64,000 nucleotides of DNA from positions 1,696,001-1,760,000 of the forward strand of contig OZ240219.1 in NCBI GenBank assembly GCA_965197645.1, written 5' to 3'. This stretch comes from Dehalococcoidia bacterium (GTDB taxonomy: Bacteria; Chloroflexota; Dehalococcoidia; Plut-88900). Numbering within the stretch: position 1 is the stretch's first letter; every line of letters begins with the position of its first letter. Positions 18,001-21,000 of this stretch are shown here, in pieces. Position numbers: made by a program.

Positions 18001-21000
18001 CATTCCTTGGCCAAGACTCACAAATCTGGCGTCAGAACTTAGGTGAGCACCTGTATTCTTGACGGGGTCTTCCCCGGGTACATTGATGCCATAGTCAAGC
18101 AAATTGTCGTATATCGCCTTATAGTGCAATGGGGTTTGAGCACACCCCAGTATCTCGAACATCGTATCGTGCAAATCTTCTGACCGCAGTTGTTGACCTG
18201 CGGTGGCTCCTTCCCACTGGGAGTAGTCAGCGAGCATACCTCGATAATTCTCAACTTTCTCAGCGATGTGGTCGTATGAGGCTTGTGCCTCCTTCAATTG
18301 CCTGTCGCGATCTCCCAACTCTGCCTCCAACTCTTTCAGGCGTTTCGTTACGTCGCGGATTACGATACTACTCATAAAATTCCTCCTCCTAGCCCTTGAC
18401 AACATGACCCTAGTGTGTTCAATGAATGTGTGGAGAGGACGGGTATCGAACCCGCATCACCCGACTCTAACTCGGGTATCTTCCCCATTAGAAGACCTCC
18501 CCACGACGTGCATTCGGTAGGGTTTGCCCCCCGCCACCGGATCCCCGCAAGGGACCAGTGGCCAATGCCGAAGGTACGTGTGGCCCAGGTAGGGATTGCA
18601 CGTACAGCATTAATTGGTGTTGCAGCACCAGCTGATACTCCTGTGATCTCAGGCCCCTGCCTGGGCCACATCCATTGTAGGGCAGCGCATGATACGCCGT
18701 CAATCGGAATATGAAGCAATTTTCCCCATGTAGTGTCCACCCGTCTCGTGCCTGCCGCAGAATGGCCATCGATAGTCAGTTATCAACCCGTACGATGGAG
18801 TGACCCATGGCCGGCCCCAACTTCGCTGGCAGGCCGTTCCGCCTACAATGAAGTCTGGCGAAGGCTGCCATCTTCCTGCGAGTCACCTCGAGGAATGTGT
18901 TTCCGTCCCATCCTCCAGCCCATTCCGTTGCACGTCCCATTCCGGCTAAGGCGAAAAGAAAGCTGTACACCGGCTCTGGTGGTCGGTTGAGGTACGAGAT
19001 TTTAACTACACCCACATCGAGTCCCATGCTGTTCCCCCCGTTGAATTTGGTCCAGCATTGTATCGGACCCGCGGCGATTTGAGAGGACCCTAACGGAAAC
19101 CCTCACCCCTGGCCCCTCTCCCTTAGCAAGGGAGAGGGGAATAAGAACAGGTGGGGGACACCCCCATACCCCCGTCAAAAGGGGCAAGGCCCCTTTGGAA
19201 TCCCCCCTGTATCGACGGCTAGTTGGGAGAAATCAGGTGGGGAACCCCCGGCTCTCGTTTCGGGGTTGAGGAAAGGGCCGGTGGCCTCAGCTCTCTAGCT
19301 GGTTTCGCAGGGCGTCCGCCAACCCGTCTATACTCACCCGCTCCTGGGCCATGGTGTCCCGGTTGCGGACGGTGACCTGGTGGTCATCCAGGGAGTCGAA
19401 GTCCACGGTGACGCAGAGGGGCGTGCCGATCTCGTCCTGCCGGCGGTAGCGGCGGCCGATGCTCTGGGCATCGTCGTACTGGGCCCGGAAGTGGGAGCGC
19501 ACCTGGTTGAAGACCTCCCTCGCCTTGGGCAGGAGCTTTTCGTTGCGGCTCAGGGGCAGGACGGCCACCTGCACCGGGCAGAGGTCTTTGTGCAGCTTCA
19601 GCAGGACTCGGGTCTCATCGCGGACCATCTCCTCGTGGTAGGCGTCGATGATGAAGGCCAGGGCGGCCCTGTCCACGCCGGCGGCAGGCTCGATGACGTA
19701 GGGCAGGACGTGCTCCTTGGCATCGTTGTCGAAGTAGGTTAGCGAGCGGCCGCTGCTCTGGGAATGCTGCTTGAGATCGTAGTCGGTGCGGTTGGCGATG
19801 CCCTCGAGCTCGGACCAGCCCATGGGGAAGAGGTACTCGACGTCGGAGCAGGCCTTGGCGTAGTGGGCAAGCTCATCGGCCTCGTGGGGCCGGAGGCGCA
19901 GGTTTTCCTTTCGAATGCCCAGGTCAACGTACCAATCGAACCGCTCCTGAATCCAGTACTCGAGCCACTCGTCGTCGGCGCCGGGGTTGACGAAGAACTC
20001 CATCTCCATCTGCTCGAACTCCCGGGTACGGAAGGTGAAGTTGCCGGGAGTGATCTCGTTGCGAAAGGACTTGCCTATCTGGGCGATGCCGAAGGGGAGG
20101 CGCTTGCGGGTGGAGGTGAGGACGTTTTCGAAGTTGACGAAGATGCCCTGGGCGGTCTCCGGCCTGAGGTAGACGGTGGCGGCGTCCTCCTCGACGGGGC
20201 CCATGAAGGTCTTGAACATCAGATTGAACTGTCGAGGATCGGCCAGATCGCCCCCGCAGTCGGGGCAGGTGTCACCCTCGAGATCGTCGGAGCGAAAGCG
20301 GTGATGACAGACCCGGCACTCGACGAGGGGGTCAGAGAAGCTGTCCAGGTGCCCGCTGGCCTTCCAGACATCGGGATGGAGAAGGATGGCCGAATCGAGG
20401 CCGACGACGTCGTCCCTCCCGTGTACCATCGATCGCCACCACGCCTCCTTGACGTTGCGCTTGAGCTCGACGCCCAGGGGGCCGTAGTCCCATACGCTGC
20501 CGAGGCCGCCGTATATCTCGCTGTTCTGAAAGATCAGCCCCCGGCGCTTGCACAGGGACACGATCTTCTCCATCGTCACTACGTCCGAAGTTTGGGTCAC
20601 AGGGGTCTCCATCGTGGTCGGTAGTCGGTAATGTACGGGTCTGACGCTTTTTCGAACGTTAACAATTTCGTCCAGGCATGTCAAAAGCGGATTTGAGTAG
20701 CGTCTTGACTGGGCAAGGCGCGATATGACAGACTAGGTCGTTGCTTCGGTAATCAGTCACAGATGCTAATAGACCTTCACAATCACACCTGGCCCGCTTC
20801 CGACGACAGCCTGTTAAGTCCCGAGGAGCTGATAGAGAAGGCGAAGGCCGCCGGCATGGACGGCATCTGCATAACCGACCACGATTGGTTCTGGGACCCG
20901 GAGGAGGTCAAGCACCTGGGTGAAAAGATGGACTTCCTGGTGATTCCCGGCGTGGAAATCAATACCGAGGAGGGCCACCTGCTGGTCTTTGGACTGGAGG

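Follow-up and report, generated by a model that had tools for sequence, protein, structure and literature searches.

A real, structurally intact class I tRNA gene, which combines an alanine-type acceptor stem with the leucine anticodon UAG, is carried on a small foreign insert in the chromosome of a Dehalococcoidia bacterium. Judged from its sequence, this tRNA may have arrived with mobile DNA and may act as a missense suppressor (or mistranslator), placing alanine at leucine codons rather than changing the genetic code; this is the favoured explanation, although it is held tentatively. The gene lies in the window, i.e., the whole 64,000-nucleotide stretch of DNA that was analysed, and the features discussed below are, in window coordinates:

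16474-17727, minus strand: sbcD, which flanks the insert.
17728..19286, no strand: variable insert of 1559 bp between sbcD and glyQS, the family synteny php-glyQS-sbcD-gdh being kept.
17753..17765, plus strand (left copy), and 18518-18530 (right copy): 13-nt direct repeat D4, 12/13 identical.
17932..18375, minus strand: 147-aa ORF with a coiled-coil-like N-terminal part and a HARE-HTH-like C-terminal domain.
18376..18430, minus strand: spacer separating tRNA and ORF, 54 nt beyond the C that follows A73.
18431..18502, minus strand: class I tRNA with anticodon UAG, 72 nt through the discriminator A73 (ARAGORN, Rfam, and fold).
18503..18672, minus strand: structured stretch of 170 nt directly upstream of the tRNA (-82.1 kcal/mol, z -4.23, 0/200 shuffles).
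18674..18703, minus strand: weak promoter-like site, TTGACG-18 nt-TACAAT (10/12 consensus).
18776..19027, minus strand: 83-aa ORF, family unassigned, common to the insert of relative G002 at the same site and to a ~90%-alike contig of another study.
19092..19212, no strand: GC-rich, REP-like hairpin repeats downstream of glyQS, with the perfect hairpins I2 and I6 and terminator-like sites.
19287-20684, minus strand: glyQS, a conserved housekeeping gene, which flanks the insert.

ARAGORN made a single tRNA call in the window (18430-18502, minus strand, anticodon tag), and the Rfam family RF00005 matched 18502 to 18431 over the whole model (1-71), scoring 48.2 bits where the threshold is 29. Both tools and a direct reading of the sequence agree with the initial annotation on a tRNA with a UAG anticodon. 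Its span of 73 nt (18430..18502) is also that of ARAGORN, to which the minus strand can now be added, but the tRNA itself comprises only the 72 nt up to A73 (18431-18502). Behind A73 comes CAC, without an encoded CCA, and the ARAGORN call ends at 18430. The stems form the 7/4/5/5 cloverleaf of RF00005 members, and the minimum-energy fold is cloverleaf-like (-34.7 kcal/mol); none of 200 shuffles equalled it, as previously claimed, with a z-score of -3.92 here instead of the earlier -3.28.

The acceptor pairs, read directly, are G1-C72, G2-C71, G3:U70, G4-C69, A5-U68, G6-C67, and G7-C66. The D stem (UUCU/AGAU) contains a mismatched U10-U25, the D loop is AAUGGGGA (8 nt), the anticodon stem has five Watson-Crick pairs, the variable loop is UGAU (4 nt), and the T stem has five pairs (one G-U), with a T loop UUCGAUA. 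The anticodon loop reads G32 U33 U34 A35 G36 A37 G38, with purines at both 32 and 38; these two G residues and the single U-U pair of the D stem had already been pointed out, and were seen again here. Overall, 20 of the 21 stem pairs are intact, U10-U25 being the sole exception. The conserved tertiary nucleotides of tRNAs are U8, A14, G18G19, A21, U33, G53, T54, Psi55, C56, A58, and C61. The gene has U8, A14, G18, G19, A21, U33, G53, U54, U55, C56, A58, and C61, all in place, together with the Levitt pair A15:U48. The host tRNA-Ala genes score about 20 bits higher in Rfam (68-73 bits).

The anticodon is not read by AlaRS. The bacterial alanine identity set comprises A73, G2-C71, G3.U70, G4-C69, and G20, according to a 2023 review (PMC9976931). 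All five elements are present in the acceptor stem and D loop, G20 being found under either numbering of the loop; the four acceptor elements were those proposed in the initial annotation, and the published rule agrees with them while adding G20. The gene departs from tRNA-Ala in its anticodon, which is UAG, pairing with CUA and CUG, instead of an NGC reading GCN, and from the class II tRNA-Leu in having a variable loop of 4 nt in place of a long variable arm.

The first five acceptor pairs are those of the host's own tRNA-Ala(CGC), as had been stated. The further statement that this gene is the best global match holds by identity (49/72), but the alignment score is tied with tRNA-His. In its body (C9, YUCU D stem, variable loop of 4 nt), the foreign tRNA differs from the host tRNA-Ala genes; it is no mutant version of a resident tRNA-Ala.

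The host genome yielded 50 ARAGORN calls. The 47 ordinary ones end in CCA, confirming an earlier count; the three calls lacking it are the foreign tRNA and nos. 10 and 15, both long and doubtful, and the foreign tRNA is the sole ordinary-sized tRNA gene of the genome without encoded CCA. A single normal alaS (862 bits) is present, as well as two genes of the tRNA nucleotidyltransferase family (CCA/A-adding type) and an RNase Z-like protein, the last three all scoring below equivalog cut-offs. The normal long-arm tRNA-Leu(UAG) previously placed at 3172768 was found as an 85-nt gene with encoded CCA (contig 3172768-3172852), and a tRNA-Leu(CAG) also exists. This tRNA-Leu(UAG) shares UAG, A73, A15, and G18G19 with the foreign tRNA, but differs from it in its length, long arm, acceptor start (GCGGAAG), and encoded CCA, and has no G3:U70.

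CUA still means leucine in this genome. In 119 codon-by-relative pairs from 12 ORFs near the locus, its counterpart was Leu in 73.9% and Ala in 3.4%, a profile like that of the other Leu codons. A reassignment of CUA/CUG to alanine was rejected on account of this alignment and of the canonical tRNA-Leu(UAG) and tRNA-Leu(CAG), and the foreign tRNA is therefore regarded as a potential mistranslator and not as a sign of code change. CUG alone accounts for 48.5% of the Leu codons, or 46 in every 1000 codons, and efficient use of the foreign tRNA would be costly.

The tRNA and the HARE-HTH ORF form a small foreign cargo module (about 0.77 kb, low GC) at a hypervariable intergenic site. Its foreign nature and the variability of the site follow from GC content, GC3, the lack of a match in 40 relatives, and the different cargo found in relatives. 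GC content is 0.49-0.51 across 17750-18499, versus 0.60-0.67 in the flanks and 0.608 genome-wide, and the insert that the initial annotation put at 1.5 kb measures 1559 bp; the GC3 of the HARE-HTH ORF is 0.547, versus 0.763 for the genome. When 40 relatives were searched with the insert, none matched the tRNA part, as had been reported. The gap between sbcD and glyQS measures 72-504 nt in G004, G006, G007, and G008, and 6.7 kb in G002. G008 carries a DUF4258/DUF2283 pair at this site, with a near-identical sequence in G007 and only the second ORF of the pair in G004, while G002 carries a DpdB-like protein and a methylase, and some relatives have no cargo at all. The insert and the G002 island have only the 83-aa ORF in common (BLASTP 45/69 identical, E 6e-35, with tblastx and blastn also matching), and no match to this ORF was found in Pfam, PHROG, or PADLOC. 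The REP-like repeats gave many matches, at ~1358-1488 of the insert query, in 22 of the 40 relatives, and a second copy is present in G000.

The two D4 copies bracket exactly the lowest-GC block, which holds the HARE-HTH ORF and the tRNA; by estimate, chance alone would produce roughly one pair of this kind in 1.8 kb, and the repeat may be a chance match. Another repeat, D3, in which the tRNA 3' end matches inside the conserved sbcD coding region, was rejected as an insertion scar and attributed to chance.

A Shine-Dalgarno-like AGGAGGAGGA is located at 18390-18381, 5 nt ahead of the ATG at 18375, and a terminator scan called no terminator-like site in the spacer; the ORF is probably co-transcribed with the tRNA. 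The structured stretch upstream of the tRNA, which contains 16-nt inverted arms (I1, 18579-18594 and 18655-18670) and has no Rfam match, is, from its predicted folding, a possible leader of the tRNA-ORF transcript. The promoter scan was at background (one site versus 0.9 expected from shuffles). The 147-aa ORF reached 22.7 bits against Pfam PF05066, under the cut-off of 25.9, and had no PADLOC or PHROG match. Its seven homologues are 40-68% identical in alignment, with the invariant motif GEDP..NTGAHLS.D..F, and three of the seven carry a precomputed PF05066 assignment. No homologue was confirmed in species-genome contigs, whether searched by single sequence or by alignment. Metagenome contigs supplied two loci, and the upstream side is included in only one of them (L182); no tRNA was found upstream there, so the tRNA-HARE pairing lacks conservation in this one instance.

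A BLAST search with the tRNA in phage and plasmid records returned nothing at E <= 0.01. Its 17-nt anticodon arm has eight exact matches in species-genome contigs, which were rejected as homologues and are considered chance matches, because ARAGORN calls no tRNA at the matched places. The gene occurs once, and nothing closely homologous turned up in relatives, species-genome contigs, or phage or plasmid records. Calling it an orphan, as was done initially, is correct among close relatives, but not more widely, as Ala-acceptor tRNAs carrying UAG, probably functional analogues, turn up here and there in other phyla as well as in viral contigs. A pattern scan of ~185,000 species genomes for Ala-acceptor tRNAs with UAG in the loop gave 16 matches, among which 13 are tRNAs by ARAGORN and Rfam (41-60 bits), ten of these with a clean anticodon loop; three further matches are on viral contigs. 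G041 and G042 keep both such a tRNA and a canonical class II tRNA-Leu(UAG), and their odd tRNAs adjoin Fic and IS transposases or an integrase. An SNF2/NOV_C protein is also among the neighbours of the analogues, and several of them (from candidate phyla and Poribacteria) lie among housekeeping genes. For G043, G044, and G045, BLAST with the host gene, a distant query, gave other tRNA-Leu genes, none with UAG. The code test in other genomes involved only 1-6 CUA codons per group. A control scan aimed at other double-mutant anticodons (pattern TTHD) gave, among the 80 loci listed, 70 normal tRNA-Ala, five non-tRNA, and five non-Ala anticodons, and is confounded by ordinary tRNA-Ala loops (UUUGC, UUCGC) that match the pattern when shifted by one base. 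Overall, the roughly dozen analogues and the viral contigs, some of them beside an integrase or transposase, suggest that horizontal spread is possible.

Natural bacterial tRNAs with a mismatch between identity and anticodon have been described before. Allo-tRNAs, as presented in the available parts of Mukai et al. 2017 (PMC5389517), combine Ser or Ala identity with Leu, Arg, Ile, or stop anticodons and insert Ala or Ser in E. coli, natural G3:U70 allo-tRNAs inserting Ala. [quoted passage not shown] The tRNAProX of Streptomyces/Kitasatospora are natural dual-identity tRNAs that mistranslate sense codons and, like the foreign tRNA, are genome-encoded and bacterial, with canonical tRNAs alongside (PMC10404621, PMC11415595, available sections). 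They associate proline identity with Ala/Asn/Thr anticodons, are usually found beside a dedicated ProRS isoform, and make up a conserved family in one clade, while the foreign tRNA associates alanine identity with UAG, has no linked synthetase paralogue, and is a singleton. Its acceptor is Ala-type, and its neighbours are glyQS, the 83-aa ORF, the HARE-HTH ORF, and sbcD.

A close parallel in combining alanine identity with a Leu-box anticodon is the tRNA-Ala(CAG) found in yeasts of the CUG-Ala clade, such as Pachysolen, a combination that is possible because the anticodon is ignored by AlaRS. Nevertheless, this tRNA is eukaryotic and stems from duplication of a resident tRNA-Ala, while the foreign tRNA has only 49/72 identity with the host tRNA-Ala, and the yeast clade underwent genome-wide codon reassignment, while CUA still aligns with Leu here (available sections of PMC11415595). 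An engineered yeast tRNA-Ala(UAG) mistranslates Leu codons and is tolerated, with ~80% growth, and the UAG variant gave the most mistranslation among Leu anticodons, as far as the accessible text describes (PMC10543346). Such engineered variants and human tRNA-Ala anticodon variants follow the same design (G3:U70 with a non-Ala anticodon), but are, in the portions available, laboratory constructs or point variants of resident genes of eukaryotes (PMC10543346, PMC12084884), and not a foreign bacterial gene at a cargo site. No bacterial canonical alanine-identity tRNA with UAG was found described in full-text searches of the literature, supplementary files, which could hold such cases, being outside this scope.

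If the foreign tRNA is a mistranslator, it would be transcribed together with the downstream ORF, excised by RNase P and 3' trimming, and completed with CCA by one of the two CCA/A-adding-type nucleotidyltransferases. The single AlaRS would then charge it with alanine, and low-level competition with the canonical tRNA-Leu(UAG) and tRNA-Leu(CAG) would lead to a small fraction of Leu-to-Ala substitutions in cell proteins. Against this explanation speak the missing CCA, the G32/G38 purines and U10-U25, the lower Rfam score, the single copy, the promoter scan at background, the L182 locus, the cost expected at CUG, and the partial fit to the E. coli LeuRS set. Alternatively, and somewhat doubtfully, the gene is a silent passenger or decaying relic that arrived with mobile DNA and has no effect, being unexpressed or unmatured; it would still look intact because its acquisition was recent. 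The missing CCA (encoded by 47/47 ordinary host tRNAs), the G32/G38 purines and U10-U25 mismatch, the Rfam score below that of the host tRNA-Ala genes, the lack of a clear promoter, the singleton status, and the remnant-like insert, sharing only one ORF with the G002 island, are all consistent with decay, as is the occurrence of allo-tRNA pseudogenes and inactive variants beside transposon and toxin-antitoxin genes (available parts of PMC5389517). However, the complete set of tertiary nucleotides and near-complete stems, an adjacent intact ORF with seven homologues and a strong Shine-Dalgarno site, upstream structure unlike random decay, and candidate CCA-adding and RNase Z-like enzymes in the genome argue against it. 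An assembly or binning artefact, in which the insert would be chimeric or belong to another organism, is extremely improbable: the genome is scored at 6% contamination (94% complete) and the GC of the insert is deviant, but the host chromosome is one 3.2-Mb contig, and 17687-19416 is matched with 0 differences by a 1730-nt contig that was built separately from a public run, probably of the source sample, and that reaches into both sbcD and glyQS. Another sample of this study also yielded identical 151-nt pieces. Runs X5 and X6 of another study contain a ~90%-alike contig across 18825-19394 (X5 record 20), diverging to its left; they do not cover the tRNA, which is a gap in cover and no proof that it is absent there.

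Charging wholly or partly by LeuRS would give the tRNA a dual Ala/Leu identity; it would then serve chiefly as an unusual tRNA-Leu with a short arm, causing little mistranslation or none. E. coli LeuRS determinants include A73, A15:U48, and G18G19, with A20a also among the elements; A73 and D/T-loop tertiary contacts decide, while neither the anticodon arm nor the long variable arm is needed, and dual-identity Tyr/Ala tRNAs with G3:U70 have been made (PMC9976931). The foreign tRNA has A73, A15:U48, and G18G19, fitting part of this set, although the rules come from another lineage, and, of the host's 47 ordinary tRNAs, only seven have A15, including all five tRNA-Leu. Nonetheless, this reading is unlikely. 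Where the E. coli rule has A20a, the 8-nt D loop shows no clear position 20a (by alternative numbering, a G stands there), and the five good host tRNA-Leu (85-87 nt) start their acceptor with GCC/GCG and have a D arm of the 3-bp type as well as a long arm, all absent from the foreign tRNA; G3:U70, moreover, acts in many contexts as a strong signal in favour of AlaRS (PMC9976931). Very unlikely, too, is a role outside translation, as the RNA of a selfish or defence two-gene module with the HARE-HTH protein, which could restrain a 'toxic tRNA', or in which the tRNA could be a decoy or mimic for tRNA-targeting enzymes. The tight linkage of tRNA and ORF, the DUF4258/DUF2283 pair and the DpdB-like protein with its methylase at the same site in relatives, and the analogues beside an integrase, IS elements, Fic, and an SNF2/NOV_C protein, or in viral contigs, would fit such a module. 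So would the allo-tRNAs with Leu anticodons, which were toxic and killed E. coli when induced, and whose kind often has genes near toxin-antitoxin or transposon genes (PMC5389517, in part). Conversely, neither ORF of the insert matches PADLOC or PHROG, the pairing is not seen at L182, the one other locus, and several analogues sit among housekeeping genes.

It is a long shot that tRNAs of canonical shape with alanine identity and Leu-box or other non-Ala anticodons form a sparse but recurrent class, borne by mobile DNA and phages across many bacterial phyla and used on purpose as switchable missense suppressors. If they do, induction would flood the proteome with Leu-to-Ala substitutions, making the tRNA a toxin, an abortive-infection effector, or a phage takeover tool, and the HARE-HTH protein and structured leader would control the foreign tRNA. 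If the gene is silent, it still stands as an annotation warning, since naming based on the anticodon gives a tRNA-Leu. A chimera with an Ala acceptor would be instantly active, because AlaRS is blind to the anticodon. Very few systems of natural mistranslating bacterial tRNAs are known, i.e., tRNAProX, the only one named in the available portions of a 2024 review (PMC11415595), and the allo-tRNAs (PMC5389517, available parts). A canonical class I tRNA that joins the complete AlaRS signature to an anticodon for leucine would offer a third and simpler way to encode ambiguity.

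The only tRNA that ARAGORN calls in the 64-kb window lies at 18430-18502 on the minus strand (the strand was absent from the initial annotation), with the anticodon UAG. The Rfam tRNA model covers it over its full length, from 18502 to 18431, with a score of 48.2 bits (threshold, 29). The proposed tRNA with a UAG anticodon stands. This score is lower than those of the tRNA-Leu(UAG) (55.7 bits) and the tRNA-Ala genes (68.0, 71.8, and 72.8 bits) of the host.

Parts of the odd tRNA, as read directly from the sequence
Acceptor stem: G1-C72, G2-C71, G3:U70, G4-C69, A5-U68, G6-C67, and G7-C66
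Positions 8, 9, and 26: U8, C9, and A26
D stem: UUCU/AGAU, with a U10-U25 mismatch
D loop: AAUGGGGA
Anticodon stem: five Watson-Crick pairs
Anticodon loop: G32-U33-U34-A35-G36-A37-G38
Variable loop: UGAU, 4 nt
T arm: stem GCGGG/CCCGU, loop UUCGAUA
3' end: discriminator A73, then CAC instead of CCA

This reading reproduces the alanine acceptor set noted earlier (G3:U70, G2-C71, G4-C69, and A73), together with the G at both 32 and 38 and the U-U pair of the D stem. The gene has the universally conserved tRNA positions U8, A14, G18, G19, A21, U33, G53, U54, U55, C56, A58, and C61, as well as the Levitt pair A15:U48; its departures from the norm are U10-U25, the purines at 32 and 38, and the lack of CCA. 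The minimum-energy fold (-34.7 kcal/mol) is cloverleaf-like and equalled by 0 of 200 shuffles, as first reported, with a slightly different z-score (-3.92 here vs -3.28).

The genome is a single contig of 3.21 Mb with 50 ARAGORN calls. These bear out the earlier count of 47 ordinary tRNA genes with an encoded CCA end, the exceptions being the odd tRNA and two doubtful long calls. The latter, a 95-nt 'Thr GGU' at 492888-492982 and an 89-nt 'Leu GAG' at 904114-904202, may be false positives or tRNA-like elements. The normal long-arm tRNA-Leu(UAG) is also present as claimed, with 85 nt at 3172768-3172852, and further tRNA-Leu genes carry the anticodons CAG, GAG, UAA, and CAA. Maturation of a CCA-less precursor by putative enzymes is plausible. 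Two genes belong to the class II nucleotidyltransferase family, their best models being CCA-adding or A-adding with scores below the equivalog cut-offs; one lies in the window (9640-11130, plus strand, 496 aa, HD domain), and together they might form a split CC-adding and A-adding pair. A 279-aa protein of metallo-beta-lactamase fold aligns end to end with the RNase Z model at about 101-107 bits, below the cut-off.

According to a 2023 review, the bacterial alanine identity set comprises A73, G2-C71, G3.U70, G4-C69, and G20 (PMC9976931). The odd tRNA has all five elements, and the genome holds one ordinary alaS (862 bits). The same source gives A73, the A15-U48 pair, G18G19, and A20a as the E. 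coli LeuRS determinants, with neither the long variable arm nor the anticodon arm being required (PMC9976931). By these rules, which are those of E. coli, the odd tRNA carries A73, A15:U48, and G18G19; A15 is restricted to seven of the host's 47 ordinary tRNAs, all five tRNA-Leu among them. Given the full Ala set and the partial LeuRS set, charging with Ala above all is the strongest prediction. The body of the odd tRNA shows C9, a YUCU D stem, and a 4-nt variable loop, vs A9, GCUC, and a 5-nt loop in host tRNA-Ala. The host tRNA-Ala(CGC) is indeed its best global match, at 49 of 72 positions (tRNA-His 47, tRNA-Glu 46); the unlike body and so limited a match rule out a mutated copy of a resident gene.

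CUA accounts for 5.6% of the Leu codons, or 5.3 per 1000 codons, and CUG for 48.5%, or 46 per 1000 codons. In 12 ORFs round the locus with counterparts in seven relatives, 119 codon-by-relative pairs, which are non-independent, involve CUA: 73.9% of them match it with Leu and 3.4% with Ala. CUG (74.7% Leu), CUC, and CUU align in the same way, and a code change of CUA to Ala is therefore rejected. Since the genome has canonical tRNA-Leu genes, ambiguity is all that the odd tRNA can add.

All features from glyQS to sbcD are on the minus strand.

Features around the odd tRNA
19287-20684, minus: glyQS
19092-19212: GC-rich hairpin repeats, between glyQS and the 83-aa ORF
19027-18776, minus: 83-aa ORF
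18703-18674, minus: promoter-like site TTGACG-18-TACAAT
18672-18503, minus: structured 170-nt stretch (-82.1 kcal/mol, z -4.23, 0/200 shuffles)
54-nt spacer from the odd tRNA to the next ORF, minus: AGGAGGAGGA five bases ahead of the ATG
18375-17932, minus: 147-aa ORF
17727-16474, minus: sbcD

The 170-nt stretch begins just past the promoter-like site and ends directly upstream of the odd tRNA; it has no match in Rfam or in 40 relatives, and may serve the cargo module as a leader or a small RNA. The low-GC insert described earlier is confirmed, with a length of 1559 bp and a GC of 0.49-0.51 across 17750-18499, vs 0.608 genome-wide. GC3 is 0.547 in the 147-aa ORF, 0.763 in 1476 long ORFs, and 0.84-0.86 in sbcD and glyQS. 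A 13-nt direct repeat (12/13; 17753-17765 and 18518-18530) brackets exactly the lowest-GC block with the ORF and tRNA, at chance level. The HARE-HTH match of the 147-aa ORF is sub-threshold (22.7 vs 25.9 bits), and PHROG and PADLOC gave no match. Seven homologues, 40-68% identical in the alignment, share the invariant block GEDP..NTGAHLS.D..F, and three of them carry the Pfam HARE-HTH domain; judged from such conservation, the ORF is a real gene.

The gene order php-glyQS-sbcD-gdh is preserved across the family, and the glyQS-sbcD gap varies among relatives, whose cargo was also read in loci L030 and L033.

Contents of the glyQS-sbcD gap
G006: 72 nt, empty
G004: 322 nt, a single ORF, judged DUF2283-like from sequence similarity
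G007: 491 nt, near-identical to the G008 cargo
G008: 504 nt (L034 1976-2452), DUF4258 (24.8 bits, just under 25) and DUF2283 (56 bits) pair
G002: 6.7 kb, YceI-like protein, NYN fragment, DndB/DpdB-like protein, and N6/N4 DNA methylase
G000 (source genome): 1559 nt, insert with the odd tRNA

DUF4258 and DUF2283 make up a putative toxin-antitoxin pair. These varied contents mark the site as a hot spot for cargo. The G000 and G002 inserts have only the 83-aa ORF in common (45/69 identical; G002 copy at L029 5557-5802), which is of no known family and is also found on a contig about 90% alike from another study. The dispersed hairpin repeats of the G000 insert are shared with many relatives. These perfect hairpins at 19092-19212, for example CCCCTCTCCCTT/AAGGGAGAGGGG, represent a REP-like family, which is present in many copies in 22 of the 40 relatives and occurs once more in G000, at 671984-672036. 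The odd tRNA, its leader, and the HARE-HTH ORF matched none of the 40 relatives searched, in agreement with the initial annotation as regards the tRNA, and ARAGORN found no tRNA in seven syntenic loci. The odd tRNA gene is very probably real, intact-looking, foreign, and located in a cargo hot spot.

No close relative of it was found in the 40 relatives, genome contigs, or phage or plasmid records. About 185,000 species genomes were scanned with a pattern (GGGG at 1-4, U8, A14, UUAG at the expected place of the anticodon loop, a GTTCRANNC T arm, and UCCA at 70-73), yielding 16 matches, three of which are not tRNAs; the other 13 are tRNAs by ARAGORN and Rfam (41.2-60.1 bits). In ten of them the loop is 7 nt long, with UAG at 34-36 (L036, L037, L039, L041, L043, L044, L047, L048, L050, and L051), and a 6-nt loop is called in L042, L045, and L049. 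By record title, they come from Peribacteria, Gracilibacteria, other Patescibacteria, Gammaproteobacteria, Acidobacteriota, Eremiobacterota, Dehalococcoidia, Poribacteria, and an actinobacterium. Outside pattern-fixed positions they are dissimilar (mean column identity 72%), and they look like independent cases rather than one family.

The L041 tRNA comes after a phage-type integrase, that of L047 is flanked by a Fic protein and IS transposases, and that of L037 adjoins an SNF2/NOV_C protein; the candidate-phyla and Poribacteria analogues have housekeeping-gene surroundings. The genomes of L047 (G041) and L041 (G042) retain a canonical class II tRNA-Leu(UAG), like G000. The G041 GlyRS is 60% identical to that of the window (same-class relatives, 62-63%), and the odd tRNA of G041 shares 77% identity with the tRNA-Ala(UGC) of that genome. 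Six tRNAs (L036, L037, L039, L043, L048, and L051) have the loop NUUAGCA, with the pyrimidine C at 37; several show a mismatched 31-39 pair and an effective 9-nt loop, and four are from candidate-phyla bacteria, among housekeeping genes. L045, from a gammaproteobacterial MAG, contains tandem class I tRNAs (769-843 and 913-984) between valS and tyrS-argS, both with G3:U70 and G4:U69. The first (69.6 Rfam bits) has an encoded CCA and the anticodon UAA (Leu). The second, if its loop is taken as the 7-nt GUUUAGC, would have the ochre-suppressor type anticodon UUA; a normal long-arm tRNA-Leu(GAG) lies 5 kb beyond. In two incomplete MAGs with scan matches, a pattern search found tRNA-Ala(GGC) in both and tRNA-Ala(CGC) in G049 only; tRNA-Ala(UGC) was found by pattern in neither G048 nor G049, and may simply be missing from them. 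The comparison for a code change in the analogue genomes had few CUA codons to draw on, at 1-6 per group.

The same pattern gave three tRNA-like matches (48-54 bits) in viral contigs. One, L210, has a clean UAG loop, no CCA, and a GGGGAGG acceptor stem identical to that of the window tRNA, a likeness of three free positions among 16 candidates that is not significant. A confounded control scan returned at least five Ala-acceptor tRNAs with non-Ala anticodons (L075, L080, L087, L112, and L128), which are, among the matches listed, Arg UCU, Lys UUU (two), Arg UCG, and Ile UAU.

The full-text literature, searched without supplements, brought up no bacterial tRNA of canonical class I form in which Ala identity is joined to the anticodon UAG. 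In the available part of a 2024 review of mistranslating tRNAs, the bacterial dual-identity family is tRNAProX, and only the yeast CUG-Ala clade is named for Leu-to-Ala (PMC11415595); passages on the Codetta screen mention no bacterial Leu-box change (PMC8629427). An engineered yeast tRNA-Ala with UAG gave the top mistranslation among Leu anticodons, at about 80% growth (PMC10543346). As described by Mukai et al., allo-tRNAs are natural, with an 8/4 or 9/3 layout and a long arm; some that pair a Ser identity with anticodons for Leu killed E. coli when induced, and some with G3:U70 insert Ala. Toxin-antitoxin genes or transposons are frequent neighbours of allo-tRNA genes, of which not every copy is active (PMC5389517).

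Several explanations can be considered for the odd tRNA. An artefact of assembly is ruled out, and an artefactual insert of any kind is extremely improbable: an independently assembled contig of 1730 nt, from a public run, spans 17687-19416 with 0 differences, and identical pieces of 151 nt are present in another sample of that study. Charging with Leu, or dual charging, is favoured by the LeuRS elements, including the A15 rare in the host, and disfavoured by G3:U70, a strong positive signal for AlaRS; it appears unlikely. A selfish or defence-type RNA is quite unlikely, and a silent relic is conceivable, if rather doubtful. The best reading, held tentatively, is that the odd tRNA would be transcribed together with the HARE-HTH ORF, matured, and then alanylated, and that the Ala-charged form would cause low-level Leu-to-Ala at CUA/CUG. 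Although a member of neither the allo-tRNA family nor tRNAProX, it would, like them, work as a missense suppressor.
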